From positions 1 through 11,754 of the IMG/VR virus record IMGVR_UViG_2671181100_000003: DNA of 11,754 bases. One strand, written 5' to 3'. The notes beneath the pieces are model-generated. The model was not told the DNA's origin, ran no database searches, and saw only the letters and a program-made list of their open reading frames with translations. The stretch's first letter is position 1, and every line of letters starts with the position of its first letter. The position numbers and the translations under genes were made by a program. Shown here in pieces: positions 1-11,754 of the stretch. The DNA comes from a virus (lineage: Duplodnaviria; Heunggongvirae; Uroviricota; Caudoviricetes).

Positions 1-179
1 ACACGCCCTTCGTTCTGCCAGAGCCTGAGCCATTTGAAAATAACATTATCATTGACGCCATTTTCACGTGCAATCTGTGCAACACAAGCTCCAGGTTGTG
101 ATGCCAGTTCCACCATACGAAGTTTGAATTCATTCGAATAGTTTTTACGAGGTTCTTTTCGCCAGTCCTGTAATTCCAT
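1..179 (-). CDS. IS-type transposase OrfA-like HTH protein, N-terminal fragment (frame runs off the left window edge)
   Basis: Minus-strand ATG at 179-177 opens a frame that continues to position 1. Translation MELQDWRKEPRKNYSNEFKLRMVELASQPGACVAQIARENGVNDNVIFKWLRLWQNEGRV shows the OrfA-type helix-turn-helix pattern of IS3-family (IS2-like) or IS66-family transposases (EFK..V.....PG..V..IAR..GV......W.....EG). Absent from the ORF track because it is truncated by the window edge. A possible element terminus (minus-strand TGACCGCCG, plus 244-252) lies ~70 bp upstream of the ATG. Confidence 0.4.
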   Translation of the reverse strand, partial: MELQDWRKEPRKNYSNEFKLRMVELASQPGACVAQIARENGVNDNVIFKWLRLWQNEGR

Positions 180-193
180 ACTTAGATGTCCGT

Positions 194-430
194 CTATATC
201 AGATGGGCGTCTAAGTTACCAATTCTCGTCTGATGGCTACATACGGCGGTCAGTTTACGCTTACGTTCAGTTGACACTGGTATTACTTTGTTTTCCTGTG
301 CTGCACATTTAGCTTCAAGCGCATCGAATTTACGCACCAGGTATTCAGCATCTGTTTCATTTACTTTCAGATCTCGCGGTACACATCTCCCACGAAGAAA
401 CCCTTCCATTTCGAAAACATTCATGCGCAT
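194..430 (-). CDS. Small hypothetical protein (76-78 aa) downstream of yfdR-like gene; 3' end possibly altered by the adjacent IS-like element
   Basis: ORF-track frame. Its start overlaps the yfdR-like stop (ATGA at 421-424), suggesting translational coupling with the likely start at 424. No recognisable motif. If the IS-like element ends near 252, the last ~19 codons would be IS-derived. Confidence 0.35.
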   Translation of the reverse strand: MRMNVFEMEGFLRGRCVPRDLKVNETDAEYLVRKFDALEAKCAAQENKVIPVSTERKRKLTAVCSHQTRIGNLDAHLI

Positions 431-957
431 TTGCGTAACTCCGATAACTCGTTAAAGCGTTCCATAAACATCCCGTAGGCATGGCCCGGTGCCAGTGGAA
501 TCACGTTGAACATCTCTGTTGCCGGGATACCTTCCAGTACAGGCCAGAAAGAGCCATCATCAAGCCCGAGATCGCGGCGTTCGGTTGCCAGCATGATGAG
601 ATCGGCATATTTCACGGGCGTACTCATAACTGGGGGTAACCCGTATTTCTCACGGATTACGGCGTCTATTTTTTCTTCCATTTGTTTATAGTCAGGAAGA
701 AGGCGTTTCAGTGGTGCGGGAATGTCCTGGCAATACGCTTCTGTTGCATCATGCATTAACGCTTCAAAAGCAAATTCCTGCGGCACCAGCTGGCTGCAAA
801 GAACCGCATGTTGGGCGACGCTGTAGAAGTGCGAAAGATGACCGGCAAAGCGACAGATATTTGAAAGGGAAACCGCGATATCGTTAATATCGATGTCGTC
901 TTTATTTATCCTGTCATAATAAAAATGCTTCCCGGAAAAAGTTTTAATAAATGACAT
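421..957 (-). CDS. yfdR: HD-domain metal-dependent phosphohydrolase (YfdR-like, putative 5'-deoxynucleotidase)
   Basis: ORF-track frame 421..984 trimmed to the ATG at 957 (MSFIKTF...), which has GGAG ~6 nt upstream, giving 178 aa. HD signature residues are present (AQHAV and LMHDATEAY). Length and sequence match my recollection of the CPS-53 prophage protein YfdR. Confidence 0.75.
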   Translation of the reverse strand: MSFIKTFSGKHFYYDRINKDDIDINDIAVSLSNICRFAGHLSHFYSVAQHAVLCSQLVPQEFAFEALMHDATEAYCQDIPAPLKRLLPDYKQMEEKIDAVIREKYGLPPVMSTPVKYADLIMLATERRDLGLDDGSFWPVLEGIPATEMFNVIPLAPGHAYGMFMERFNELSELRKCA

Positions 958-1052
958 TTTGTTCTCCACGTATATGCGCTGCACCGCGCTGAATTCTGGT
1001 AAAAAGAATCCCTCACCATCCGGCGATTATTGAGTAAATTACGTTTCCATAA

Positions 1053-1070
1053 ATGCCCCCGCAGGGACAT
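1053..1070 (-). terminator. Weak hairpin between yfdQ-like and yfdR-like genes (possible attenuator or partial terminator)
   Basis: Imperfect inverted repeat ATGCCCC/GGGACAT with a 4-nt loop, followed on the minus strand by UUUAUGG. Not a canonical U-tract. Confidence 0.2.
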
Positions 1071-1084
1071 TTGCAGTAATGAAA

Positions 1085-1909
1085 TCAGGCGGTGAAAGTG
1101 CCAATAAAGGTTTCTACTTTGCTGTCCTTGAATTTCTCAACAAGCAGATCACGAAATTCGTTAGCCATTTCTTCCTGCACCGCCTCCAGCTGAATAATGC
1201 GCAGAACCAGTACAGGACGATCGCCAGTGATAATACTGAGGCGTAATTTAAACGGACGTTCTTTCAGACCTTCAAACGGAACGCATTTAAATTCAAATGC
1301 CACTGGCATAATGTCTTTGGTTTTCGCTTCGACAGACTCCATCAGAGAGCGTTTGCCGCTGAAGTCATTGTCTTCAAAATCAGCGGTCTGGTTTGCTTCA
1401 ATCGTGATTTTACGGACAGCCGCAGCCGCTTTTGTTGCCTGAATAGCGTCACCATTAGCATCAAAGCCCACAAGGTAGTCGGCCCAGTCTTCAATCCATT
1501 CTGCTAGTGACTTCTGGGAGTTACGCTCGCCGTTAACAGACAACAGAGCAGAGAACGGTGCTGTCTTTTTCAGTTTGAGTGTGGCGGTGTTATCTGCGTG
1601 ACCTGGTTCATCAATAGTACCTAGGTTAAGCACACTGACGGCACGCATATTATCAGCATCGATAAAGCAGCGGGTGCCTTCATCTGCAAGATCTTTAGAA
1701 TAACGGGTAAAATCATCGATGCTGGCAGTGGAAAGCGCACCACGGAAACGGAAGCGATTTAAATTAAATTTTTCCAGATCATGAATGCGGAAATTCTCAG
1801 GCAATGCCACAGCATCGGCACCAATCTTACTGATAATTTCATTAACACCCTGAGCAGAAATAAGGGCATGGATTTGATTAATTGCGGTTGCGTCTAAGTT
1901 CTGAGACAT
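1085..1909 (-). CDS. yfdQ: DUF2303-family phage early protein (YfdQ-like), function unknown
   Basis: 274-aa ORF with GAGGA 5 nt upstream of the ATG. Length and sequence ([21 protein letters not shown]...) match my recollection of YfdQ from prophage CPS-53. Confidence 0.75.
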
Positions 1910-1974
1910 AATAAGTCCTCACTATATAAAGATATTCAGTGATGAGATAAATAATCAGTTAATTAAAAACGATA

Positions 1975-2337
1975 TTAACGACCTGCTGCGCGGAGTTTTC
2001 CGTCAGGTTCACCGGCAAGAGTCAGCAACTGTCCCTGGTCTTCCTGCAGAATAGTCAGGCGACCACCGCGATTGACATACATCGGCGTTTCGGTGGTGTC
2101 TTCTTCGGAAATTTTCCCGCGGTTAGTCGGGCGAACATATGAGAGTTTGTGTTTGATTTTCACTCGGTTCTCATCAAACGGTTCGATTTCTAGGTTGAGC
2201 GAGACCTTACCTTTGGTTTTCGTGTTCATCACACCGGAAGCGACTTCACTGAGAACTGCGCCGATTTTGGTTTCAAATACGCCGCCGTCCAGCTCCCCGA
2301 TAAATGCCTGCACATCAGTACTGCGTTCGCTAGCCAT
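1975..2337 (-). CDS. yfdP: YfdP-like early protein (120 aa), function unknown
   Basis: ORF-track frame 1975..2655 trimmed to the internal ATG at 2337 (MASERSTDVQ...), which has GAGGAG ~7 nt upstream. The 106 upstream codons are P/G/R-rich read-through of GC-rich non-coding DNA. Confidence 0.65.
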   Translation of the reverse strand: MASERSTDVQAFIGELDGGVFETKIGAVLSEVASGVMNTKTKGKVSLNLEIEPFDENRVKIKHKLSYVRPTNRGKISEEDTTETPMYVNRGGRLTILQEDQGQLLTLAGEPDGKLRAAGR

Positions 2338-2385
2338 TTTGCTGCTCCTCATCATATCGACCCTGCAAGGTCGGTTAGTTTCTCC

Positions 2386-2666
2386 ACAAAACAGAGAAGA
2401 ACACCTGCGGTGACTGCCGCCCGGATGGATTGGGTTATGAGCCCGTCGTCCGGTGATGCTCTTCTCTGTTTTGTAAAAAGGACGGTACCAGCCGGAAGCA
2501 AGGGTACAAGCTGGTACCGCCAAGACTACACACAGCATAAAGTTGTGGTGCCGGGTGCCTCCCGGTGCCTGGCGAAGGTTGCACACCAGGCGGGTGGGTA
2601 TCCACAGAAGGTCGACTGTCAGCCTCAACCTTAACCCGCGTGCGCTGAGCCGCATTCACCACAACG
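2386..2666. other. GC-rich non-coding stretch with nested perfect inverted repeats (candidate structured leader RNA or regulatory element of the leftward early operon)
   Basis: Perfect inverted repeats: 15 bp (2386-2400 ACAAAACAGAGAAGA / 2460-2474), 10 bp (2483-2492 CGGTACCAGC / 2510-2519), 9 bp (2542-2550 GTTGTGGTG / 2657-2665), 7 bp (2575-2581 / 2627-2633), plus short GC hairpins at 2551-2565 and 2567-2591. ORFs open in several frames here encode P/G/R-rich, non-protein-like sequence. Confidence 0.3.
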
Positions 2667-2806
2667 CTAAGGATTCTCTCTGGTTGAAAATACTTAGCTG
2701 TTATGTGCCTGCTTTTAGCCACATCAGGCGAGGTGGACCTAGTTATTCCCCAACAACAAGGATTCGGTTAATCTGGATATCCCCAACAACAATAAGAGTA
2801 TTCAAT

Positions 2807-3322
2807 GTGATCGCTGAATTAACGGCAGCAATGACGGCTATTCGTGAAATCGCCCAGATTGCAAAACTAATGAACGAGGCAAAAACTCAAGCTGAAGTAA
2901 ATGCGGCTATTGGTGAGCTGAACTCAAAGCTTGCGTCTATTCAGCGCGAATGCGTGTCTCTCGTTGAACTGCTGGGCTCTTATCAAGAAATAAATGCTTC
3001 TCTCAAAGCTAAAATTGCAGAATTCGAAAACTTTGAGGCTCAGACGGAAGGCTATATCCTTAACCAACTTGAGTCGGGTACTTTTGTATACTCGAAGGAG
3101 GTAATCGTGAACGGTGACAGCATAACCATGCATCTTTGCCCAAAATGTTTTGGACAAAAGATAGTATCGATACTTCAACCATTCCCGGTTAGCGAAGATG
3201 AGCTTTTTCATAAAAGCAGGTGCCTCCACTGTGAAAATAAGTTTCTGATGAATAAAAATCCAGATTACGTATCGCCTCCATCCATTGAGGAGTTGGCCAG
3301 AAAACTTAACGGCAATCTGTAG
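2807..3322 (+). CDS. Coiled-coil protein with C-terminal CxxC...CxxC zinc-ribbon (accessory gene in the immunity region, function unknown)
   Basis: ORF-track frame 2543..3322 trimmed to GTG 2807 (AAGAG 8 nt upstream) or ATG 2831. The N-terminal ~80 aa are heptad-like and A/E/K/L-rich; the C-terminus carries CPKCF and CLHCENK ~24 aa apart. GC is ~42% against ~52-55% in the replication genes. Convergent with the repressor, own terminator downstream. Confidence 0.55.
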   Translation: MIAELTAAMTAIREIAQIAKLMNEAKTQAEVNAAIGELNSKLASIQRECVSLVELLGSYQEINASLKAKIAEFENFEAQTEGYILNQLESGTFVYSKEVIVNGDSITMHLCPKCFGQKIVSILQPFPVSEDELFHKSRCLHCENKFLMNKNPDYVSPPSIEELARKLNGNL

Positions 3323-3347
3323 ATTGCTACTGTTGTGGATATCCAGA

Positions 3348-3360
3348 TTGTTAAAGAGCG
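3348..3360 (-). promoter_or_regulatory. boxA-like element (minus-strand CGCTCTTTAACAA), candidate nut-type antitermination site
   Basis: Minus-strand 13-mer CGCTCTTTAACAA matches the boxA consensus (rrn boxA TGCTCTTTAACAA; lambda nut boxA CGCTCTTA...) as I recall it. It is flanked by hairpins at 3362-3378 and 3312-3327 and lies downstream of a candidate leftward promoter at 3468-3496. Confidence 0.35.
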
Positions 3361-3361
3361 A

Positions 3362-3384
3362 AGCGTCCTGTAGGGCGCTTTTTT
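3362..3384 (+). terminator. Rho-independent terminator of the coiled-coil/zinc-ribbon gene
   Basis: Stem AGCGTCC / GGGCGCT (7 bp, one G-U) with loop TGTA, followed by TTTTTT at 3379-3384, ~40 nt after the stop codon at 3320-3322. Confidence 0.5.
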
Positions 3385-3465
3385 GTTGCTAACGAATCAT
3401 CCTGGACTTCATATGCCCCAGGCGGCTACTTCGTGGGCGTCCTGCCTGTTCGTTATCTTTGATAT

Positions 3466-3553
3466 AAAATCTAACTTAACTTAGCTATTATGGCAAGAGA
3501 AAACACCAAACTTTTCTTAGTTCGGTGCCTTAGTTAGAGAAGAGAGGTCTTAG
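3466..3553 (-). promoter_or_regulatory. Candidate left operator/promoter (OL/PL-like): leftward promoter flanked by CTTAG half-sites
   Basis: On the minus strand: -35 TTGCCA (plus 3491-3496), 17-bp spacer, -10 TAGATT (plus 3468-3473). CTTAG occurs four times within 3480-3553 (3480, 3516, 3529, 3549), the same pentamer that forms the operators between the repressor and cro. Confidence 0.3.
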
Positions 3554-4176
3554 AGTTCGTATTGAACTCCTTTGACTACACCAATGATAAGGCAATTACC
3601 ATTGATAGGGATGTTGGGATACCGAGGATTTAATGGCACTAAAAACTTTTGAGGGCCATCGATGACTAATTTTTTTACTGTAGCTTCGTTTGTTCCATCA
3701 AGTCGAGCGATGACTATTTTTCCATGACGAGGTTCTGCATCTGGATCTACAATCACTGTTGCGCCTTCTGGTATTGTTGGGAGGCCATTAGGGTTAGTCA
3801 TGGAGTCACCTTTAACCTCTAATGCAAATGAGTTATCACCAACCTTTAATGATGTATCTACCCACTTGTCCACTTCACTAAACACTTCTGCTGCCCTGCA
3901 CTCAGTAAACTGCCCAGCCTGAACCCACGATATTACAGGAACTCTGCGCATGTTTGTGACGAGTTTGCCTTCAAACTCAGCACCATAAAGAATGTAATCT
4001 ATTGACGTATTGAAGAACTTCGCTAATTTCGAAAGTGCCTCCCCACCAGGGGTATTGATGTCTTTCTCCCAGTACCCCACAGCAACGTCGCTTACTCCAC
4101 AAAATTTACCCAATTCTTTCTGGGACGTTCTGGTAACTCTTCTCAGAGCTTTTATACGCTGACCAACCGTTTCCAT
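3550..4176 (-). CDS. Phage repressor, cI/LexA-type (N-terminal HTH + C-terminal S24 autopeptidase domain)
   Basis: 208 aa. N-terminal HTH (QKELGKFCGVSDVAVGYWEKD), candidate Ala-Gly cleavage site (VQAGQF), S24 catalytic motif GDSM and Lys in TVKKL. Divergent from a cro-like gene across an operator region. Confidence 0.9.
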   Translation of the reverse strand: METVGQRIKALRRVTRTSQKELGKFCGVSDVAVGYWEKDINTPGGEALSKLAKFFNTSIDYILYGAEFEGKLVTNMRRVPVISWVQAGQFTECRAAEVFSEVDKWVDTSLKVGDNSFALEVKGDSMTNPNGLPTIPEGATVIVDPDAEPRHGKIVIARLDGTNEATVKKLVIDGPQKFLVPLNPRYPNIPINGNCLIIGVVKGVQYEL

Positions 4177-4195
4177 AGGAGCACCATTTCTTTAA

Positions 4196-4266
4196 TTGCT
4201 AAGTAATCTTAGTTTTTATTGACCAAAGATAGATTTGTAATTAGCATCTAACAAAACTTAGTTTGG
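4196..4266. promoter_or_regulatory. OR-like operator/promoter region between repressor and cro
   Basis: Inverted half-sites CTAAG-TAAT-CTTAG (4199-4212), perfect palindrome AAACTTAGTTT (4254-4264), CTTAGTTT repeated at 4208 and 4257. Rightward promoter candidate -35 TTGACC (4219-4224), 17-bp spacer, -10 TAGCAT (4242-4247), upstream of the cro ATG at 4274. Confidence 0.5.
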
Positions 4267-4273
4267 AGAGCGT

Positions 4274-4474
4274 ATGACAACTGACGATATCGAAAGCTAC
4301 TTCGGCAGTATTGAGAAAGTTGCTGCTTTTTTCGGCATAACAACTGAAGCCGTTTATCAGTGGCGAAACCGTCCGGGCCAGTTAATTCCAAAAGGACGTG
4401 CAGCAGAAGCTGCATATAGAACTTGCGGACGGTTGCCATTTAAACCTGAGCTTTATGAAAAATCTAATGGATAA
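4274..4474 (+). CDS. cro: Cro-type repressor (P22 Cro-like)
   Basis: 66 aa; DIESYFGSIEKVAAFFGITTEAVYQW resembles P22 Cro (DVIDHFGTQRAVAKALGISDAAVSQW). Divergent from the repressor; GGAGAG upstream. Confidence 0.8.
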   Translation: MTTDDIESYFGSIEKVAAFFGITTEAVYQWRNRPGQLIPKGRAAEAAYRTCGRLPFKPELYEKSNG

Positions 4475-5063
4475 ATCGATTAACAGAAACCACAGAACGA
4501 TGAGGCTAACCGTGGGTAAGCATCACTGGAAAGTAGAAAAACAGCCTGAGTGGTACGTGAAAGCTGTCAGAAAAACTATCGCAGCGTTGCCGGGTGGTTA
4601 CGCTGAAGCTGCTGACTGGCTGGATGTAACAGAGAACGCATTATTTAACCGCCTTCGTGCCGATGGCGATCAGATTTTCCCGCTGGGATGGGCAATGATT
4701 TTGCAACGTGCTGGTGGAACTCACTTCATTGCTGACGCTGTGGCGCAGTCTGCAAATGGCGTCTTTGTGTCTCTTCCTGATGTCGAGGATGTGGACAACG
4801 CCGATATCAACCAACGCCTGCTGGAAGTCATTGAACAGATCGGCAGTTATTCAAAACAGATTCGTTCAGCAATTGAAGACGGTGTAGTGGAACCGCATGA
4901 GAAGACAGCAATTAACGATGAGCTGTACCTCTCAATTTCGAAGCTGCAGGAGCATGCAGCACTGGTCTACAAAATCTTTTGCGTTTCAGAAAGTAGTGAC
5001 GCCCGCGAGTGTGCAGCTCCGGGCGCCGTGGCGTGTCGTGACTGTGGAGAAACTAACGCATGA
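4455..5063 (+). CDS. CII-position early regulatory protein (CII/CP76-like by position; start uncertain)
   Basis: ORF-track frame 4398..5063. The GTG at 4398 has no usable SD spacing and overlaps cro by 77 nt; ATG 4455 or ATG 4467 (overlapping the cro stop) are likelier starts. About 200 aa, first gene after cro. Family assignment is by position and vague recollection only. Confidence 0.45.
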
Positions 5064-5398
5064 ACAGTTTAACAACACACTACCGTCGCTCGCAACTGAT
5101 TGCGCTTCCTGTACCGGGTGGAAAAGCGAAGGTGGAGTATTGCTATGCAGTAAATGTACCAGGTGACAGGGAAATTGTAACCCACAGCTTTGCAGAGTGG
5201 GCTGTGGGTGATTTCAACCGGCAGAAGGAGACAGTCCTTTGCGACAAGTTAACCGCTGGTTCAAAGATCACTACGGAGTGCCCGTCAGAGTCATTCGTTG
5301 GGAGCCGGAAACACAACGTGTTATCTACCTCCGCGAAGGCTATGAGCATGAGTGCTTCAGCCCGCTCGAACAGTTTCGTCGTAAATTCAGGGAAATAG
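5060..5398 (+). CDS. Hypothetical protein (112 aa as called); only the N-terminal ~55 aa look protein-like, possible frameshifted or overlapping gene
   Basis: ATGA overlap with the preceding stop (5060-5063). The N-terminal part ([52 protein letters not shown]) looks coding; the C-terminal ~50 aa are S/A-rich low complexity and overlap a better-looking frame (see 5239..5418). Confidence 0.3.
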
Positions 5399-5418
5399 AG
5401 GTCGGTCATGAGCACTAA
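5239..5418 (+). CDS. Small hypothetical protein (59 aa) from a TTG start; alternatively the C-terminal half of a frameshifted gene starting at 5060
   Basis: Not in the ORF track (no ATG). AAGGAG at 5225-5230, 8 nt before TTG 5239. Translation [59 protein letters not shown] is compositionally protein-like. Stop at 5416-5418 overlaps the O-like start. Confidence 0.3.
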
Positions 5419-6364
5419 ATTAACCGGCTATGTATGGGATGGTTGCGCTGCATCAGGCATGAAATTATCCAGCGTGGCAATTATGGCCCGCCTGGCTGAT
5501 TTCAGTAATGACGAAGGTGTGTGCTGGCCATCAATTGAAACCATTGCCCGCCAGATTGGCGCGGGGATGAGTACCGTCAGAACGGCTATCGCACGGCTGG
5601 AAGCAGAAGGCTGGTTAACGCGTAGGGCGCGTCGCCAGGGTAACCGCAATGCGTCGAATGTTTATCAGCTTAACGTTGCGAAGCTTCAGGCAGCGGCATT
5701 TTCTCAACTGTCAGATTCTGACCCGTCAAAATCTGACGCATCAAAATCTGACGCATCAAAATCTGACCCGTCAAAATTTGATGCGTCGAAATCTGGCAAA
5801 AAAGCGGGTTTTCACCCGTCAGAATCTGGTGGGGATCCGTCAGTAAAATCAAAACATGATCCGTCAGATAAAAAAACTTCTCGTCCGGACGCTTCGCAAC
5901 CGGACACGCAGACGGCTGAACAGGATTTTTTAACTCGCCATCCTGATGCGGTTGTATTCAGCCCTAAAAAGCGCCAGTGGGGGACGCAGGATGATTTGAC
6001 CTGCGCACAGTGGCTCTGGAAAAAAATCATCGCCCTGTACGAGCATGCCGCCGAATGTGACGGCGAGGTGGTTCGTCCCAAAGAACCGAACTGGACAGCC
6101 TGGGCAAACGAAATTCGCCTGATGTGTGTGCAGGATGGTCGTACTCATAAACAAATCTGCGAGATGTACAGCCGCGTCAGTCGCGATCCGTTCTGGTGCC
6201 GTAACGTGCTCAGCCCGTCGAAGCTGCGGGAAAAATGGGATGAGCTTTCCCTGCGCTTATCGCCGTCCGTCAGCACGTACACCGAAAAACGCGAAGACCC
6301 GTACTTCAAAGCCAGTTACGACAACGTGGACTACAGCCAGATCCCGGCAGGATTCAGGGGGTGA
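5408..6364 (+). CDS. Replication initiator, lambda O-like (N-terminal HTH DNA-binding domain, repeat linker, C-terminal domain)
   Basis: 318 aa, GAGGT 5 nt upstream. N-terminal HTH (SSVAIMARLADFSNDEGVCWPSIETIARQIGAGMSTVRTAIARLEAEGWL) is typical of phage replication initiators. An internal tandem-repeat block encodes (S/P)KSDA pentapeptides, like the iteron-encoded linker of lambda O. Position after cro/CII. Confidence 0.7.
   Translation: MSTKLTGYVWDGCAASGMKLSSVAIMARLADFSNDEGVCWPSIETIARQIGAGMSTVRTAIARLEAEGWLTRRARRQGNRNASNVYQLNVAKLQAAAFSQLSDSDPSKSDASKSDASKSDPSKFDASKSGKKAGFHPSESGGDPSVKSKHDPSDKKTSRPDASQPDTQTAEQDFLTRHPDAVVFSPKKRQWGTQDDLTCAQWLWKKIIALYEHAAECDGEVVRPKEPNWTAWANEIRLMCVQDGRTHKQICEMYSRVSRDPFWCRNVLSPSKLREKWDELSLRLSPSVSTYTEKREDPYFKASYDNVDYSQIPAGFRG
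5711..5800. repeat. Six tandem 15-bp repeats inside the O-like gene: candidate replication-origin iterons
   Basis: Units TCAGATTCTGACCCG / TCAAAATCTGACGCA (x2) / TCAAAATCTGACCCG / TCAAAATTTGATGCG / TCGAAATCTGGCAAA. Each junction forms the dyad CGTCA-AAATC-TGACG. Degenerate copies and an A-rich stretch follow to ~5880. Confidence 0.5.
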
Positions 6365-6366
6365 TC

Positions 6367-6855
6367 ATGAGTCTTTTGAATGACGTTCAGAAATTCATTG
6401 AAGCCCATCCGGGGTGTACTTCCGGAGACATTGCGGATGCTTTTGCAGGTTACTCACGACAGCGCGTTCTGCAGTCAGCAAGCAAGTTACGTCAGAGTGG
6501 GCGTGTGGCTCACCGTTGTGAAGGGGATACACGCAGACATTTCCCGCGGCTGACTGAGATACCGCAGGAGCCGGAACCGCAACCAGTTCGTGAATCCAGA
6601 CCTGTGCGCAATTTCTATGTCGGCACTAACGATCCCCGGGTGATTTTGTGCCTGACCCGCCAGGCGGAAGAACTGGAGTCCAGGGGCTTATACCGTCGTG
6701 CTGCAACGGTGTGGATGGCGGCATTCCGTGAAAGCCACTCCCAGCAAGAGCGAAACAATTTTCTTGCGCGTCGTGAGCGGTGTTTACGGAAAAGCAGCAA
6801 GCGCGCTGTATCGGGTGAAGAGTGGTATCTGTCAGGGAATTACGTGGGGGCTTAA
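6367..6855 (+). CDS. Putative transcriptional regulator: N-terminal winged-helix-like region plus PerC-like C-terminal motif
   Basis: ORF-track frame 6361..6855 trimmed to ATG 6367 (GGGGG 5 nt upstream, overlapping the O-like stop). The C-terminal motif AEELESRGLYRRAATVWMAAF resembles the PerC/Pch activator signature as I recall it. The size (162-164 aa) matches my recollection of YfdN. Confidence 0.55.
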   Translation: MSLLNDVQKFIEAHPGCTSGDIADAFAGYSRQRVLQSASKLRQSGRVAHRCEGDTRRHFPRLTEIPQEPEPQPVRESRPVRNFYVGTNDPRVILCLTRQAEELESRGLYRRAATVWMAAFRESHSQQERNNFLARRERCLRKSSKRAVSGEEWYLSGNYVGA

Positions 6856-7181
6856 TGACGACGTTAACTCAATGCCAGCAGCAGGTGCTGGATATGCTGA
6901 TTTCTTATCAGAAAGAACGTGGCTTCCCGCCAACCAATCAGGAGGTGGCAACCATGCTGGGATACCGTTCAGTGAATGCAGCGGTGGAGCATCTTCGCGC
7001 ACTGGAGAAAAAAGGCGTCATCACGATAAAGCGTGGCGTGGCCCGGGGCATCACGCTTCATACCGCGGTGAAGGACGACGACAGCGAGGCGGCCGGGATT
7101 ATCCGCGCACTGCTTGCTGGTGAGGAAAACGCCAGGCTGCGTGCAGCCCACTGGTTACATGAGAGGGGCCTGAAAGTATGA
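6855..7181 (+). CDS. LexA DNA-binding-domain-like protein lacking the S24 peptidase domain
   Basis: ORF-track frame trimmed to ATG 6855 (TAATG overlap with the upstream stop; GGGGG upstream). LTQCQQQVLDMLISYQKERGFPPTNQEVATMLGYRSVNAAVEHLRALEKKGVITIKRGVARGITL aligns by eye with the LexA N-terminus ([65 protein letters not shown]). The 108-aa product stops before any protease domain. Confidence 0.75.
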   Translation: MTTLTQCQQQVLDMLISYQKERGFPPTNQEVATMLGYRSVNAAVEHLRALEKKGVITIKRGVARGITLHTAVKDDDSEAAGIIRALLAGEENARLRAAHWLHERGLKV

Positions 7182-7567
7182 AGCTGATCCTGCCTTTTCC
7201 GCCCAGCGTGAACACGCACTGGCGACACCCCAACAAAGGGGCGTTTGCTGGTAAGAGCCTGATAAGCGCGGCGGGGCGAAAATTCCAGAGCGCGGCGTGC
7301 GCAGCAATAGTTGAGCAGTTACGTCGTCTGCCAAAACCAACGTCGGCACCTGCTTCAGTGGAGATCGTGTTGTTTCCTCCGGATAACCGGATCCGCGATC
7401 TGGACAACTATAACAAGGCGCTGTTTGACGCCCTGACCCACGCGGGTGTGTGGGAAGACGACAGTCAGGTGAAAAGAATGCTGGTGGAGTGGGGACCGGT
7501 TATCCCGGAAGGGAAGGTCGAGATCACTATCAGTAAGTACGAGAAACCGGCGGGTGCAGCCGCCTGA
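7178..7567 (+). CDS. rusA: RusA-family Holliday junction resolvase
   Basis: 129 aa with ATGA overlap to the upstream gene. Motifs LPFPPSVN, DLDNYNKALFDALT and GVWEDDSQV match the RusA family. Confidence 0.85.
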   Translation: MKLILPFPPSVNTHWRHPNKGAFAGKSLISAAGRKFQSAACAAIVEQLRRLPKPTSAPASVEIVLFPPDNRIRDLDNYNKALFDALTHAGVWEDDSQVKRMLVEWGPVIPEGKVEITISKYEKPAGAAA

Positions 7568-7586
7568 TTAAGAGGAGAAACGAAGT

Positions 7587-8384
7587 ATGAATAATCTGAT
7601 GGTTATTGATGGTATTGAAGTTCGTCGTGATGCTTATGGGCGTTACAGCCTGAACGATCTGCACAGGGCTGCCGGTTCTCTGGATAAACATAAGCCTGCA
7701 TTCTGGCTCCGCAATGAGCAAACTGAACGTTTAATAAGCGAGTTGCAGATTTGCAACTCGGTCAATATAGAGCCAGTTAACGTTATTCGTGGAGGAAATA
7801 ACCAGGGGACGTATGTCTGCAAAGAACTGGTGTATGCCTATGCAATGTGGATCAGCCCGTCATTCCATCTGAAGGTGATCCGTACTTTCGATATGGTAAC
7901 CAGCACACCGGAAAAATTATCCGGGCAGGCTGCTGACAAGATGCAGGCTGGCGTGATCCTGCTGGACTTTATGCGCCGGGAGTTAAACCTGTCTAACTCT
8001 TCAGTGCTTGGTGCCTGTCAGAAACTCCAGGAGGCTGTTGGCTTACCGAATCTGGCACCGCGCTATGCCATTGATGCTCCTGCTGACGCGCCTGATGGCT
8101 CAAGCCGCCCCACGCTGTCACTGAGTGCACTGCTGAAGCAGTATGGTATCCGCCTGACAGCTAATCAGGCATATCACCAGATGGTGAAGCTGGGGATCGT
8201 CGAGCAGCGCGAACGATACAGCCGTACCGCGATTAACAACATCAAAAAATTCTGGTCACTGACAGCGAAAGGCTGCATGTTCGGCAAGAACATCACCAGT
8301 CCCGCAAATCCGCGCGAGACGCAGCCGCATTTCTTCGAATCCCGATTCCCTGAGCTGTTAAAGCTGCTCGATACCGTTCATTGA
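7587..8384 (+). CDS. KilA-N domain protein (N-terminal KilA-N DNA-binding domain, uncharacterised C-terminal domain)
   Basis: 265 aa with strong RBS AAGAGGAGAAA. N-terminal YSLNDLHRAAG...KPAFWLRNEQTERLI...IRGGNNQGTYVCKELVYAYAMWISPSFHLKVIRTFD fits the KilA-N fold. Confidence 0.8.
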   Translation: MNNLMVIDGIEVRRDAYGRYSLNDLHRAAGSLDKHKPAFWLRNEQTERLISELQICNSVNIEPVNVIRGGNNQGTYVCKELVYAYAMWISPSFHLKVIRTFDMVTSTPEKLSGQAADKMQAGVILLDFMRRELNLSNSSVLGACQKLQEAVGLPNLAPRYAIDAPADAPDGSSRPTLSLSALLKQYGIRLTANQAYHQMVKLGIVEQRERYSRTAINNIKKFWSLTAKGCMFGKNITSPANPRETQPHFFESRFPELLKLLDTVH

Positions 8385-8385
8385 G

Positions 8386-9381
8386 GTGACCGTGAGAGCG
8401 CTACTGACCCCTGAAATTGCCCCGCGTATGGGGATCGTATTGTTCAGGCCAGGTTCAGAGCTGATGCCCCTGTTTATGCAGGGCCGTGTTCTGCTGGAGC
8501 CTGAGCCGGAGCGTTATTCATCTTTCGCCAGTGGTGCCGTTCCTGCGGCATCACAACCGCTGGCGGATGATCCTGCCGTTCTGGCCGTGTTCCGTAATGA
8601 GGCAGTGATTCGTCGTGCTGGTGGGGTGGAATGTCTTGAAAGCTGGTTACTTCGTGAAAAAGGCTGCCAGTGGCCTCATTCCGACTGGCACAGCGAGAAC
8701 ATGACCACAATGCGACACGCGCCGGGCGCAATCCGTCTGTGCTGGCACTGCGATAACCAGCTTCGCGATCAGTTCACGGAACGGCTGGAATCAATGGCAA
8801 CGGATAACTGTGCCCGCTGGGTGTTGTCTGTTGTGCGTCGGGATCTCGGTTTTGATGATAGTCACGTTGTGACAATGCCGGAACTGTGCTGGTGGCTGAT
8901 TCGTAATGATCTGGCAGATGCCTTACCGGAAAGTGCAGCCCGTAAGGCACTGAGATTACCGAAGCCTGTTGTGCCGTCTGTCACCCGGGAAAGTGACCTT
9001 GTGCCTTCGGTTCCTGCCACCAGCATCATCCAGGATAAGGCGAAAAAGGTGCTGGCGCTGAAAGTGGATCCGGAGTCGCCGGAGTCTTTTATGTTACGCC
9101 CAAAACGCCGCCGCTGGGTTAATGAAAAGTACACGCGCTGGGTTAAGACACAGCCGTGTGCATGTTGTGGAAAGCCTGCTGATGATCCCCACCACCTGAT
9201 AGGTCACGGTCAGGGTGGAATGGGTACAAAAGCGCATGACCTCTTTGTGTTGCCTTTGTGCAGAAAGCATCACGACGAGCTGCATGCGGATACCGTGGCA
9301 TTTGAAGAGAAGTATGGCTCCCAACTGGAGCTGATATTTCGTTTTATCGATCGCGCGCTGGCGATTGGTGTGTTGGCCTGA
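8386..9381 (+). CDS. DUF968-like nin-region protein with C-terminal Cys/His-rich (HNH-like) motif
   Basis: 331 aa from GTG 8386 (start uncertain; internal ATG at 8428). C-terminal CACCGKPADDPHHLIGHG...LCRKHHDELH suggests a zinc-binding nuclease-like motif. Family assignment from memory of YdfU-like prophage proteins. Confidence 0.55.
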   Translation: MTVRALLTPEIAPRMGIVLFRPGSELMPLFMQGRVLLEPEPERYSSFASGAVPAASQPLADDPAVLAVFRNEAVIRRAGGVECLESWLLREKGCQWPHSDWHSENMTTMRHAPGAIRLCWHCDNQLRDQFTERLESMATDNCARWVLSVVRRDLGFDDSHVVTMPELCWWLIRNDLADALPESAARKALRLPKPVVPSVTRESDLVPSVPATSIIQDKAKKVLALKVDPESPESFMLRPKRRRWVNEKYTRWVKTQPCACCGKPADDPHHLIGHGQGGMGTKAHDLFVLPLCRKHHDELHADTVAFEEKYGSQLELIFRFIDRALAIGVLA

Positions 9382-9398
9382 TTTGGTGGAGAAAGTTG

Positions 9399-9764
9399 AT
9401 GCGTGATATTCAGATGGTTCTGGAGCGTTGGGGAGCATGGGCGGCGAGTGATAGTTCTGGAGTAGACTATTCGCCTATAGCTGCTGGGTTTAAGGGGCTT
9501 CTTCCCTACACAAGCAAAACACGTCAGGCTTGTTCAGATAGTGATGCATTAATTATTGAAGGTTGTCTTGCTCGTCTAAAGCAAAAAAAGCCAGATGAGC
9601 ACTCGCTGCTTGTGGCACATTATTTATACAGAATATCCAAGCGTAAGATTGCAAAGGTGCGTGGAAAGGATGAAAAATTGGTACGCATAGAAATACAACT
9701 AGCCGAAGGATTTATTGATGGTTGCCTTTCAATGTTGGATGTTAACCTTGAAATGGACGCTTAG
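9399..9764 (+). CDS. Late-gene antiterminator Q (small Q family)
   Basis: ORF-track frame 9396..9764 trimmed to ATG 9399 (GGAG 7 nt upstream). The N-terminal motif DIQMVLERWGAWAA...DYSPIAAGFKGLLP matches my recollection of the small antitermination-Q family. Last gene of the rightward early operon. Confidence 0.7.
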   Translation: MRDIQMVLERWGAWAASDSSGVDYSPIAAGFKGLLPYTSKTRQACSDSDALIIEGCLARLKQKKPDEHSLLVAHYLYRISKRKIAKVRGKDEKLVRIEIQLAEGFIDGCLSMLDVNLEMDA

Positions 9765-9770
9765 GGTTGC

Positions 9771-9800
9771 ACAGGTTGGCCCCATATGAGGCCAACCTGT
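9771..9800. other. Perfect 11-bp inverted repeat (hairpin) between convergent Q and membrane-protein genes
   Basis: ACAGGTTGGCC (9771-9781) / GGCCAACCTGT (9790-9800) with an 8-nt loop. It starts 7 nt after the Q stop and abuts the membrane-protein stop codon (9800-9802). No adjacent U-tract on either strand, so not a canonical intrinsic terminator. Confidence 0.4.
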
Positions 9801-10261
9801 CACAAGTGGGGGAAGATTTTTCGTAACACTAACCAACACCTTCCGAAGGTATATAGCGAAATTATAAGGGAGGATAAGCCTAACAGTATGAATAGGAAAT
9901 CAATAGGTTTGCCCGCAACAATAACATCATCTGGTAGAAACATCGCTATCAATGGAAATATACATGCGACGATGAGAGTTAACCCTGTTGAAAGTAATCG
10001 ATTTACCAGAGTTGGTAACACGTTGTTTTGCTTAAGGGCATTAATTGCTCCTTCCTTATCGCTGTTTGCACTACTAAATATAGATATTGCAGCCAGAACA
10101 AAACCAAACAGGATGCCTGATATAGTCGAGAGCACCCCCGCTGTTGTGAGTACGTCAGCATGCTTCATCGGTTTAAACAGTTTTGTCGCTGCATAGGTCA
10201 ACAGAATCCAGAGGACGCATTTCCAGAGAAAAGTGGCTAATTCTCTCATTGTGTCCTCCAT
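9800..10261 (-). CDS. Small integral membrane protein, four predicted TM helices (second gene of the two-gene cassette)
   Basis: 153-aa ORF; the likely start is the second ATG at 10249 (GGAGG 5 nt upstream), giving 149 aa. Four hydrophobic segments (~residues 10-28, 37-63, 85-109, 120-140) with short loops and no soluble domain. Separated by ~20 nt from the upstream 313-aa gene. Confidence 0.6.
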   Translation of the reverse strand: MEDTMRELATFLWKCVLWILLTYAATKLFKPMKHADVLTTAGVLSTISGILFGFVLAAISIFSSANSDKEGAINALKQNNVLPTLVNRLLSTGLTLIVACIFPLIAMFLPDDVIVAGKPIDFLFILLGLSSLIISLYTFGRCWLVLRKIFPHL

Positions 10262-10270
10262 GCTTGGTTA

Positions 10271-11212
10271 TTAGTCTCTGCTAGCGAGCTCATACTGTGC
10301 AAGATAGTTCGCGTTATCAATTTTAGCAGATATCATCGCCGTTCTGATATCAGAATCGGATGGATAACCGCTTTTGACAATGATTGTCTTTGTACTGACC
10401 AATACTTGGTCAAGTAGACTTTTGGGCGTTCTATTGGATGGCTCTGTTACATCAATTTTTTTAATTTTTAGACCTCCAGAACCTTTTGGAAAAAGTTCAA
10501 GTAGTTCCTTAATAGCATCGGTGACAGAAGTTTTTAGATAGTTAAAACCTTGTTTTTTCGGGCGAATCCGACCTCGCATATTTAATCTTAGATGCGACCC
10601 GCCCATACCAACAACCATGTCAATAATTTCATTAGCTAAAGGGTTTTTAATCTTATAATTAGCTTTGTTAAAGTTTCTTGGAGCAGCAACTATAAGATCG
10701 AAACTACGTAGGATATTTCCGTCCTCAAGCAGTTCCTTCATGCTCTCTTGTTTCCAAATGGCTTCAAAAGTGACGCTTTTTAAATCAGTTTTGTTATACA
10801 AAATGAATGCCAGATCATTTACTTTGGGCCCTATATGGTTGAGGGTCATAGCTAATAAATCCGTTTCGTAGTAATAGATAAAATATGTTCTTTCAACTAC
10901 AGAATCTTTATCATTTAAAGGAATTGTTCTCTCACTACCTGTAGCATCCTCGATGAACGGTAGTAGGCATTCCCTTCTCCACGATACGTAACCAAAGTAA
11001 CATTGCAGTGTGGTATCTTTTTGAAGAATAACTAACTTTAACCCTCGATTTGGGGTGTCTGTTGTGTAAGTTATTGGAAAAGTTACAGTATCTGCTGTGG
11101 TCATTTGCTCAAAGGCTAGTTTTGCAGCAGATGTGCCATCTTTTTTGCTTCCATTACCAGTGAAAAAACCAACTCTCACTCGCCTAGTTTTATTCTTATT
11201 TTCTGTACTCAT
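10271..11212 (-). CDS. Uncharacterised 313-aa soluble protein (first gene of the two-gene cassette)
   Basis: Long ORF with no recognisable catalytic motif by eye (no Walker A, no clear nucleotidyltransferase GS...DxD). K/N/T-rich, GC ~35-42%. Opposite in orientation to all flanking phage genes. Confidence 0.65.
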   Translation of the reverse strand: MSTENKNKTRRVRVGFFTGNGSKKDGTSAAKLAFEQMTTADTVTFPITYTTDTPNRGLKLVILQKDTTLQCYFGYVSWRRECLLPFIEDATGSERTIPLNDKDSVVERTYFIYYYETDLLAMTLNHIGPKVNDLAFILYNKTDLKSVTFEAIWKQESMKELLEDGNILRSFDLIVAAPRNFNKANYKIKNPLANEIIDMVVGMGGSHLRLNMRGRIRPKKQGFNYLKTSVTDAIKELLELFPKGSGGLKIKKIDVTEPSNRTPKSLLDQVLVSTKTIIVKSGYPSDSDIRTAMISAKIDNANYLAQYELASRD

Positions 11213-11227
11213 TATCGATCCGAAATA

Positions 11228-11257
11228 ATTTTAGCAACCGTGTGAAAAATACAACAA
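11228..11257 (-). promoter_or_regulatory. Candidate promoter of the two-gene cassette
   Basis: Minus-strand -10 TAAAAT (plus 11228-11233) with -35 TTGTTG (plus 11252-11257, 18-bp spacer) or TTGTAT (15-bp spacer). Leader to the ATG would be under 15 nt and the RBS is weak, so confidence is low. Confidence 0.2.
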
Positions 11258-11334
11258 AAAAAAGAGGAAATCATTAGCGCGGTCCGCAAAAAACATTGTA
11301 ATCTGTTAAGAGTGGTTACTTCGCCACACAACTT

Positions 11335-11359
11335 AAACCCGCCGCTGAGCGGTTTTTTT
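11335..11359 (+). terminator. Hairpin plus T7 tract (intrinsic terminator-like) on the plus strand upstream of the small ORF at 11481
   Basis: AAACCCGCCGCTGAGCGGTTTTTTT: stem CCGC/GCGG (extendable with a bulge) then seven T. Would terminate plus-strand transcripts that have crossed the cassette antisense; could be a tR'-like site. Confidence 0.35.
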
Positions 11360-11409
11360 GTACCTGTAAACCTGGTGCAGTACAGTAAACACGCTGGTGG
11401 TCGTGAATA

Positions 11410-11436
11410 CTGGCTTTTTATCTTGCTGGCTTTTTA
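11410..11436. repeat. Direct repeat CTGGCTTTTTA x2 (16-bp period) upstream of the 11481 ORF
   Basis: Exact 11-bp copies at 11410-11420 and 11426-11436; candidate regulator binding sites or part of a late promoter/qut region. Confidence 0.3.
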
Positions 11437-11480
11437 GACAAGAGTTATTGGTATGTCATGTTAACCAGAAGGGAAAAAAC

Positions 11481-11684
11481 ATGCTAAAACAGCAAGATAT
11501 GACAGAAACCGCCGCCGCAGTCCTTCATTTCTTACCTGCTGACAAGTGGGTAACGCCACGCATGATGACGAGAACTACCGGAGTAAGCGAAGCCCGGTGC
11601 CAGTTAATACTGACTCAGTTAGTTCTGGCGGGTCTGGCGAAGGATAACGGCGGGTACGGGAATAAATTCAGACGCTGCCAGTAA
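11481..11684 (+). CDS. Small hypothetical protein (67 aa), possibly winged-helix DNA-binding
   Basis: ORF-track frame 11397..11684 trimmed to ATG 11481 (AAGGGA 6 nt upstream). Translation MLKQQDMTETAAAVLHFLPADKWVTPRMMTRTTGVSEARCQLILTQLVLAGLAKDNGG looks like a small winged-helix regulator. Confidence 0.45.
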   Translation: MLKQQDMTETAAAVLHFLPADKWVTPRMMTRTTGVSEARCQLILTQLVLAGLAKDNGGYGNKFRRCQ

Positions 11685-11754
11685 TGGCGGTTTCCTGCTG
11701 TGAAAATGGGCGGCTGGTGGGTGTTGGTAGCACCTGCCAGCCATTCGCTCATGC
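11684..11754 (+). CDS. Possible start of a further gene (partial, runs off the right edge)
   Basis: ATG at 11684 overlaps the preceding stop (TAATG); the frame stays open to the window end (MAVSCCENGRLVGVGSTCQPFAH...). Too short to judge. Confidence 0.2.
   Translation, partial: MAVSCCENGRLVGVGSTCQPFAH

Follow-up and report, generated by a model that had tools for sequence, protein, structure and literature searches.

STnc100 (EcOnc27, sRNA103) and the related PasD are Hfq-associated small RNAs (sRNAs) of prophages, encoded in late regions and of unknown function (bioRxiv 10.64898/2026.05.13.724894; PMC12711010; PMC12370729). EcOnc27 and PasD are bound by Hfq, and PasD has been confirmed by northern blot (bioRxiv 10.64898/2026.05.13.724894; PMC12711010). 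For the prophage genes dicB and kilR, which will be compared below, no full-length ydfABC-dicF-dicB transcript was observed in K-12 (bioRxiv 10.1101/2023.04.14.536235), and kilR is expressed by read-through when termination by NusG/Rho is lowered (PMC5793797). In this study, we analyzed a stretch of 11,754 nt of a Caudoviricetes virus (IMG/VR record IMGVR_UViG_2671181100_000003, positions 1 to 11,754; hereafter the window) with respect to the region 2380-2666, which an initial annotation had described as a single GC-rich, non-coding element of about 290 bp in the 5' leader of the leftward early operon, upstream of yfdP. This position is correct. Sequence and structure comparisons show that the minus strand of 2698-2472 encodes a predicted non-coding, pseudoknotted RNA of the STnc100/PasD prophage superfamily.

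All four perfect inverted repeats proposed initially are present at the positions assigned to them: 15 bp (2386-2400 / 2460-2474, within 25-nt arms that are 84% complementary), 10 bp (2483-2492 / 2510-2519), 9 bp (2542-2550 / 2657-2665) and 7 bp (2575-2581 / 2626-2632). The G+C richness was also recovered, with values up to 0.59 in 2401-2600 compared to about 0.43-0.50 on either side. The minus strand of 2465-2700 folds at -100.9 kcal/mol (z = -5.13, none of 200 shuffles as good) and the plus strand at -88.8 kcal/mol (z = -2.52), while the minus strand of 2338-2480 reaches -59.7 kcal/mol with z = -6.08. This strand asymmetry indicates that the repeats are RNA helices read leftward, from the minus strand. 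Each of them maps to a helix: the 15-bp repeat forms the base of an 89-nt hairpin, the 10-bp repeat a terminator stem, the 9-bp repeat the closing stem P1 and the 7-bp repeat a pseudoknot. The extended multi-stem RNA of the initial annotation is thus borne out. Its unity and extent are not, since the region consists of two separable elements, A (2698-2472) and B (2474-2386), both on the minus strand, and reaches to about 2698.

No Rfam family was matched at its gathering threshold anywhere in the window. The Rfam scan by E-value, a check that the initial annotation had proposed, matched STnc100 (RF02076) from end to end of the model (positions 1-206, model length 206) at 2695..2472 on the minus strand, with 43.4 bits and an E-value of 4.3e-8, under the gathering score of 47 bits. 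Relatives of the same subtype scored 40.6 (phiES15), 35.1 (ST64B), 34.4 (Qin) and 33.4 bits (phage P1), so that all tested members of the subtype fall below the Rfam threshold, at 33-41 bits. The resemblance to STnc100 comprises the closing stem GUGGUG/CACCAC, J1/2 AAU, the P6 hairpin CCGGG-AGGCA-CCCGG and an exact 21-nt 3' block, together with a variable middle, a pseudoknot between the P5 loop and a 5' segment, a downstream intrinsic terminator and the location in a prophage. The family's 3' block CACCGGGAGGCACCCGGCACCA is present as the P6 hairpin adjoining the closing stem. The exact 21-mer ACCGGGAGGCACCCGGCACCA (2570-2550, minus strand) is common to at least 120 genome loci, from genera that include Kosakonia, Enterobacter, Klebsiella, Raoultella, Citrobacter, Pantoea and Erwinia.

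The family's 5' block GUGGUGAAU is present as well, but the canonical P2 hairpin CCCCC..GGGG is replaced by GCGGCUCAGCGCACGCGG. Among 142 instances containing the core, 111 display the canonical form GUGGUGAAU-CCCCCUnnGCGGnGGGG and 20 the form found here, named the 'GCGGC' subtype. These comparisons show the RNA of the window to represent a distinct predicted subtype of STnc100/PasD, in which the CCCCC/GGGG hairpin gave way to GCGGCUNAGCGCACGCGG. In addition to this P2 segment and the lower score, it differs from canonical STnc100 in lacking a recognizable own promoter 8 nt upstream and in its location, which is the leader of the early-left operon in the window and the late (Q/lysis/stx) region for canonical copies. 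Many members of the subtype also lack a terminator and abut a start codon. The pseudoknot, formed by the P5 loop and the segment after P2, was found in this study and is missing from the Rfam consensus line. Tandem arrays of canonical STnc100 were observed in Superficieibacter and Enterobacter loci (L036, L037, L048, L033 and L074), with two to three copies 220-270 nt apart, each with its own variable middle.

Element A is composed of a 5' hairpin, the conserved domain, a linker and a terminator. The 5' hairpin GCUAAG..CUUAGC (2698-2666), seen as inverted repeat I3 and in the minimum free energy (MFE) fold and contained in the Rfam match 2695..2472, falls outside 2380-2666; a different hairpin takes its place in ST64B. 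The STnc100-type domain of the 'GCGGC' subtype follows at 2665-2542 and folds into five helices and a pseudoknot within about 125 nt. Its closing stem P1, GUUGUGGUG/CACCACAAC, is the 9-bp repeat (2665-2657 / 2550-2542). From the 5' side, P1 is followed by J1/2 AAU (2656-2654), the P2 region with the conserved segment GCGGCUCAGCGCACGC (2653-2638) and the 5' strand of the long-range stem P3 (2639-2634 / 2595-2590). The segment AAGGUUG just after P3 (2632-2626) pairs with the loop CAACCUU (2581-2575) of the P5 hairpin (2589-2584 / 2574-2569), and this pseudoknot is the 7-bp repeat. The P6 hairpin (2565-2561 / 2555-2551, loop AGGCA at 2560-2556) abuts the 3' strand of P1. Downstream of the domain lie a single-stranded linker of 20 nt, UUUAUGCUGUGUGUAGUCUU (2541-2522), which is a candidate seed, and a predicted intrinsic terminator (2521-2472) with a 12-13-bp stem GGCGGUACCAGC / GCUGGUACCGUCC, a 17-nt loop and UUUUU at 2479-2475. 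The terminator is based on the perfect 10-bp repeat I4, the fold and the end of the Rfam match at 2472. All of these features are on the minus strand.

Covariation across related prophages had been named as a check, and it supports every helix of the predicted structure. P1, P3, P5 and the pseudoknot are all kept with differing sequences in 12 diverse members of the subtype, scored sequence by sequence in a helix table. The pseudoknot reads AAGGUUG/CAACCUU in the window, AAGGCUG/CAGCCUU in phiES15, UGGUUAU/AUAACCA in phage P1 and AGACUGACA/UGUCAGUCU in locus L098. In a permutation test on 74 non-redundant members of the family, the mean Watson-Crick run of the pseudoknot was 5.58 with a sequence's own partner and 3.80 with permuted partners, and none of 5000 permutations came up to the former value. 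When 33 domains of the subtype were aligned, 88% of the cells could pair compared to 79% after shuffling (0/500), both sides were changed in 20 pairs, and the covariation score was 0.254, versus 0.124 for shuffled alignments and 0.04-0.07 for slid partners. One P6 pair is U-A in 18 and G-C in 15 of these sequences and thus paired in all of them, and the P6 loop AGGCA is nearly invariant, with three single-base exceptions. The pseudoknot was paired in 81% in this count. Note that MAFFT could not align the variable middle across subgroups. For this reason, P3, P5 and the pseudoknot were evaluated sequence by sequence, and the pair count includes them only in part; the alignment is unreliable in this region, and the P5 and pseudoknot figures are underestimates for the subgroup of the window.

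Open reading frames (ORFs) in several frames had been reported for the region, and ORFs of 49-106 codons are indeed open over the element on both strands. A coding function was considered for a YmfH-like ORF of the minus strand, for the 95-aa basic ORF 2435-2722, which the initial annotation had kept as a possible N-like antiterminator, and for a plus-strand ORF (phrog_3651). Besides the open frames, existing annotations speak for such a protein: two of the ORFs belong to PHROG families, one on each strand, the e14 copy is annotated in K-12 as ymfH, and PGAP places a 'frameshifted hypothetical protein' over the element. These calls are inconsistent with each other, however, as they lie on both strands, require a frameshift in the case of PGAP and have no counterpart in SfV and ST64B, where the annotators placed no gene. 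The PHROG matches on both strands were judged to be annotation artefacts, and none of the four ORFs over the element matched a Pfam domain. Among the homologues, the invariant 5' and 3' blocks are separated by 119 to 134 nt (-6 to +9), and the differences are mostly non-multiples of three. This spacing was used in place of a stop-codon count, which was uninformative because longer segments took in downstream genes. Moreover, not a single nucleotide of the conserved blocks differs between genera, as would not be expected of codons, and the substitutions found elsewhere compensate RNA pairing. Conservation of a reading frame was not found among the homologues; the N-like or YmfH protein was rejected, and the chance that the element encodes any protein appears practically negligible. 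The e14 copy itself (L005 3193-3316) has a damaged core CCGGGGGCACCCGACACC, has lost an A of the loop, carries a G->A change in one stem and ends in a different terminator hairpin, which fits decay in a defective prophage.

The subtype was found in SfV, SfIV, ST64B, phiES15, phage P1 and Qin/Rac-type prophages, and a scan of viral contigs for its 5' block gave at least 120 loci. Most of these are of the Qin/Rac type, in which the closing stem has 15 bp, P6 reads CCUGG/CCAGG and a terminator is missing. Among 135 instances, the next protein encoded is DicB in 50, where 32 nt separate the end of the domain from the start codon, and KilR in 19, at 37 nt; the identities of both proteins were confirmed by NCBIfam. 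About 25 instances stand before yfdP, as in SfV, SfIV, ST64B and the window, six before TciA/TerB-like proteins, and others before YdaE or the Kil of phiES15. About 75 copies are placed 32-40 nt before a start codon and carry no terminator. In phage P1, the domain constitutes the 5' untranslated region (UTR) of tciA in the ban operon. These positions show the subtype to be a conserved leader element of early-left (PL-type) prophage operons.

The Qin prophage of K-12 provides a close comparison (L252 4844-5070). There, the domain begins within about 10 nt after DicF (76.7 bits) and ends about 20 nt upstream of the dicB AUG, so that it fills the 175-nt dicF-dicB gap (34.4 bits with the STnc100 model). 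The arrangement DicF-domain-dicB was found in 4646 of the 5426 complete E. coli genomes, with a median of two copies of the domain. Qin and the window share the 5' block of the subtype, the pseudoknot, the P6 loop AGGCA, a repressor-controlled early-left operon and a DicF-type hairpin and terminator module nearby. They differ in order, which is DicF, domain and dicB in Qin and domain, seed with DicF-like terminator, hairpin and yfdP in the window. The Qin copy also has P6 CCUGG/CCAGG, a 15-bp closing stem and no terminator after the domain. The dicBF (bioRxiv 10.1101/2023.04.14.536235) and kilR (PMC5793797) papers do not mention the domain, and full-text searches returned no structured RNA there. 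Literature searches on ymfH, ST64B sRNAs and dicB/kilR leaders gave no description of the element either. As far as these searches show, neither the connection with the dicB and kilR leaders nor the pseudoknot nor the RprA- and DicF-like 3' module described below has been reported. A further GC-rich, apparently structured stretch was seen upstream of the domain both in ST64B (L003 ~2740-2965), with a terminator-like hairpin CTGGCGG..CCGCCAG TTTTT, and in Qin (L252 ~4540-4840), between ydfC and dicF.

The 3' part of element A has the layout of the 3' end of an Hfq-type sRNA, namely a seed, a hairpin and a U-tail. Linker positions 2537-2522 (UGCUGUGUGUAGUCUU, 16 nt) are identical to the Rfam consensus of RprA and stand, as in RprA, immediately upstream of the terminator. 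The linker is kept in the window, in ST64B with one change and in phiES15, despite unrelated terminator hairpins. In phiES15 (L004 3104-3169), 19 consecutive nucleotides are identical to RprA, the terminators resemble each other, and P6 is aligned with hairpin 2 of RprA, at a model score of 41 bits. No match to RprA (RF00034, gathering 70 bits) was found in the window up to E = 10. The window RNA differs from RprA, a core-genome sRNA under Rcs control, in having neither its 5' hairpin nor its AACGAAUU segment. This family of prophage RNAs and the 3' half of RprA may descend from a common ancestor, which we regard as a lead only. DicF is resembled in another way. Both are sRNA-like modules of a prophage early-left operon with an intrinsic terminator and a single-stranded seed directly upstream of its hairpin, and the 5' arm GGCGGUACCAGC of the window hairpin resembles DicF GGCGGUAUCAGU. 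The seed is unrelated to the ftsZ-pairing seed of DicF, and loop and 3' arm differ. The DicF model (RF00039) reached 19.4 bits on 2534-2480, compared to a gathering score of 48 and 76.7 bits for genuine DicF.

Element B is the 89-nt hairpin of the yfdP 5' UTR (2474-2386, minus strand; inverted repeat I1), covered by the fold of 2338-2480 given above. It consists of a base stem of about 25 bp, including the 15-bp repeat, and a three-way junction on top with an anticodon-arm-like GGG-CUCAUAA-CCC; ARAGORN found neither a tRNA nor a tmRNA in it. In about 50 phages, among them Stx2c phages and mEp460, element B accompanies yfdP without the body of element A, and its pairing is kept with changed sequence in ST64B, e14 and Klebsiella Kp4866-6. 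The long perfect duplex in a 5' UTR suggests a candidate RNase III-type processing or stability site. The top of the hairpin (2418-2468), GACGGGCUCAUAAYCCAAUCCAUC..GGG, recurs right after tRNA-Asn or tRNA-Arg downstream of Q in Klebsiella phages, one case being a partial copy of element B after the tRNA-Arg of phage RCIP0034 (L131 2501-2551). This top may be a tRNA-derived or tRNA-associated processing element.

The window covers the early region of an SfV/SfIV/e14/ST64B-type lambdoid prophage, and the identical segment of an E. coli chromosome is part of a prophage integrated beside tRNA-Thr and adjoining proA. The leftward genes yfdT..yfdQ and yfdP are encoded on the minus strand. The gene yfdP (1975-2337, 120 aa, PHROG 204), whose true start is the AUG at 2337-2335 according to the RefSeq annotation of identical DNA, is the first gene downstream of the RNA element. 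Just before its start lie a small hairpin (2375-2356) and the Shine-Dalgarno sequence GAGGAG (2350-2345), both on the minus strand and recognized from sequence and fold. The region 2380-2666 is located in the 469-bp gap upstream of yfdP, and the next gene after the gap encodes 171 aa on the plus strand (2807-3322). Farther upstream are the gene ymfK for a LexA-type, cI-like repressor (3550-4176, minus strand) and a cro-like gene (4274-4474, plus strand), with operator palindromes CTAAGnnnnCTTAG in the cI-cro region. In the early-right region of ST64B, we also noted C4 antisense RNA (79.7 bits) and isrK (64.3 bits), two known families (L003 409-597, minus strand).

A consensus scan gave no own promoter for the subtype. 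A promoter-like site with its -10 box ending about 8 nt before GGUG was found by this simple scan in 27 of 106 canonical copies and in none of 16 subtype copies; weak candidates are visible by eye, e.g. AAGACA-17-TATTTT in SfV. Since no sigma-70 promoter was recognized for the subtype at the canonical position, we infer that the transcript crossing 2380-2666 starts at a PL-like promoter, TTGCCA-17-TAGATT, which the promoter scan placed at 3496-3468 on the minus strand, just downstream of the repressor gene. This promoter carries the operator-like CTAAGTTAAGTTAG, a variant of the repressor-cro palindrome CTAAGnnnnCTTAG. In SfV, e14 and ST64B, this position is taken by promoters of other immunities, and repressor genes lie upstream in the same orientation in subtype loci including Lelliottia, Buttiauxella and ST64B. 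Such an origin agrees with the regulation of the e14 copy, as ymfH is co-regulated with e14 genes in the intE-xisE-ymfH operon and the e14 (YmfT) iModulon (PMC12132413).

Directly after the PL-like promoter, a conserved leader with two stem-loops (3455-3393, minus strand) was identified as a candidate nut/put-like signal. It also follows the promoters of different immunity in SfV, e14, ST64B and mEp460_4F5, with copies at L006 ~3925-3985, L005 (e14) ~4045-4105 and L003 (ST64B) 2672-2735. RNAalifold predicts 14 pairs in it, three with compensatory changes, which are found in the alternatives CCUGG/CCAGG, CCGGU/ACCGG and CCCGGU/ACCGGG. The leader and HK022 putL have in common only ACGAAC and CAGGAUGA, at similar spacing. 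The exact boxA consensus CGCUCUUUAACAA occurs once in the window (3360-3348, minus strand), just after the bidirectional terminator of the plus-strand gene, and is followed by the palindrome UGGAUAUCCA; no nutR-like partner was found in the window at up to two mismatches. The 171-aa protein of the plus strand is coiled-coil-like and belongs to PHROG 1244 of unknown function, and its gene is antisense inside the PL leader. In the region 2706-3478, the gene is flanked by 19-nt inverted repeats (2770-2788 / 3331-3349, 95%) and by a 14-nt direct repeat ACTTAGCT(G/A)TTATG (2692-2705 / 3479-3492), and it looks like a moron cassette inserted between the leader and element A. SfV and e14 (ymfI) have other plus-strand genes at this position. 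A perfect 13-nt direct repeat TCCCCAACAACAA (2747-2759 and 2780-2792, 33 nt apart) just upstream of the start of the plus-strand gene could be a regulator-binding or promoter element for it.

We regard it as somewhat probable that element A is a leader RNA of the early-left operon which ends as an sRNA-like transcript of about 225 nt and acts in trans, like DicF. Transcription would start at the PL-like promoter 3496-3468 on derepression. Given the predicted terminator after the linker, most transcripts should end at about 2475 and leave an RNA of about 225 nt or a shorter processed 3' fragment. This RNA would act as an Hfq-type base-pairing sRNA embedded in the operon, as DicF is in dicBF, with the linker as its seed and the conserved domain as a 5' structural module for stability, processing or partner binding. 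Polymerases that read through would pass element B into yfdP-yfdQ-...-xis-int, and their read-through would probably depend on the promoter-near signals, leader 3455-3393 and boxA 3360-3348, rather than on element A. Several observations weigh against a released, trans-acting RNA. The score for STnc100 misses the gathering score, and the Hfq data come from canonical members of the family only. The linker is different in mEp460_4F5, and a search for its targets within the window gave only the trivial antisense match, the other duplexes (-26 kcal/mol) lying in the range of shuffled seeds. P2 and the P6 loop hardly change from genus to genus, which suggests that they contact a specific partner or ligand. 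Furthermore, most members of the subtype (Qin/Rac type, phage P1, Buttiauxella) lack a terminator and run into a gene, so release of an sRNA cannot be the ancestral or general function.

The main rival is a role in cis; most copies of the subtype stand without a terminator directly before toxic genes. The domain would then be a sensor or binding platform, either a riboswitch-like aptamer or a site to which the ribosome, RNA polymerase or a protein of phage or host binds, and would control the next gene, typically one for a toxic inhibitor of cell division, through the terminator (window, ST64B, phiES15 and canonical STnc100) or through translation or mRNA stability (dicB, kilR and tciA), and the 'sRNAs' would be terminated leader transcripts. 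We hold this to be possible but rather doubtful. It accounts for one aptamer-like fold with two downstream arrangements, the start-codon-near copies without a terminator and those with one, and for helices that covary around a variable middle while P2 and the P6 loop (GGAGGCA, including a Shine-Dalgarno-like GGAGG) hardly change. The pseudoknot, the tandem copies, the enrichment of dicB, kilR and kil downstream, all genes that need tight control, and the lack of a full-length dicF-dicB transcript in K-12 (bioRxiv 10.1101/2023.04.14.536235) are in line with it. However, many canonical members own a promoter and behave as Hfq-bound, trans-acting sRNAs with RIL-seq/CLASH targets, and yfdP in the window starts about 200 nt and two further hairpins downstream. 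No alternative pairing of P1 or P6 with the terminator or a downstream Shine-Dalgarno sequence was found by eye, which was not a systematic search. A broader form, which as a whole we consider unlikely, would make the STnc100 superfamily a prophage cis-regulatory class rather than primarily a group of trans-acting sRNAs. Its pseudoknotted, aptamer-like domain would respond to a signal of the host, or to a factor of host or phage that it binds, and gate toxic early genes (dicB, kilR, kil, tciA) and late-region cargo. STnc100, EcOnc27 and PasD would be terminated or processed products, and so, perhaps, would the 3' half of RprA, which would then be a domesticated remnant.

Two further alternatives concern antitermination and the DNA itself. 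A put-like RNA, which as nascent transcript binds RNA polymerase and allows read-through of the early-left terminators without an N protein, had been among the options of the initial annotation. Like HK022 put, element A is a structured RNA encoded in cis within the PL transcript of a lambdoid phage that has no obvious N gene. An N-like gene could not be seen, and on its way to yfdP..int the leftward transcript, which contains this conserved structured RNA, has to cross several terminator-like hairpins. Since Rfam has no put family, membership was judged by direct comparison with the sequence and fold of HK022 putL. The latter has about 70 nt and two stem-loops, as opposed to 125 nt, five helices and a pseudoknot, and there is no sequence resemblance. 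The 5' and 3' signature blocks of the domain are absent from the HK022 early region by exact-string search, and HK022 gave no Rfam match. The domain is also far from the promoter (about 800 nt in the window and 350 nt in ST64B), after the first terminators, and in Qin it follows rather than precedes the DicF terminator. Canonical relatives terminate efficiently, about 33 nt downstream, and accumulate as discrete sRNAs. The expected put/nut position is occupied by the separate conserved leader 3455-3393 and boxA 3360-3348, which are the better candidates for antitermination. On these comparisons a put-like function appears highly improbable. Even less credence is given to an element that acts as DNA only, i.e. 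an operator or protein-binding array, a recombination hotspot or a repetitive extragenic palindrome. Mosaic joints at module edges (2523, 2681 and 2736) and the 14-nt promoter/operator repeat abutting the element (2692-2705 vs 3479-3492) would suit it. Against this, G-U pairs and the pseudoknot are kept by compensatory change, folding is strongly strand-asymmetric, the operator palindrome CTAAGnnnnCTTAG is absent inside the domain, and the family includes experimentally detected RNAs. Compensatory changes that preserve pairing and the strand asymmetry speak for an element at the RNA level. From the functions listed initially, the structured leader and the sRNA are therefore retained, in agreement with the STnc100 match and the covariation, and the put-like RNA, the binding-site array and the N-like protein are not.

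If a leader RNA of the STnc100/PasD superfamily is the correct interpretation, ymfH of K-12 and many 'hypothetical protein' calls in phages are probably spurious ORFs over a structured RNA. The same RNA domain would be an uncharacterised leader of dicB and kilR, the prophage inhibitors of cell division. Leaky expression of these genes underlies the essentiality of Rho/NusG in K-12, growth arrest induced by OxyS and DicB-mediated phage resistance, and a structure supported by covariation would give a direct handle on how the toxic genes are restrained. The family, regarded until now solely as Hfq-binding sRNAs, would gain a pseudoknot and a cis-leader subtype. It would also be linked to DicF-type modules and the 3' half of RprA, and thereby to a possible origin of core-genome sRNAs from prophage RNAs.

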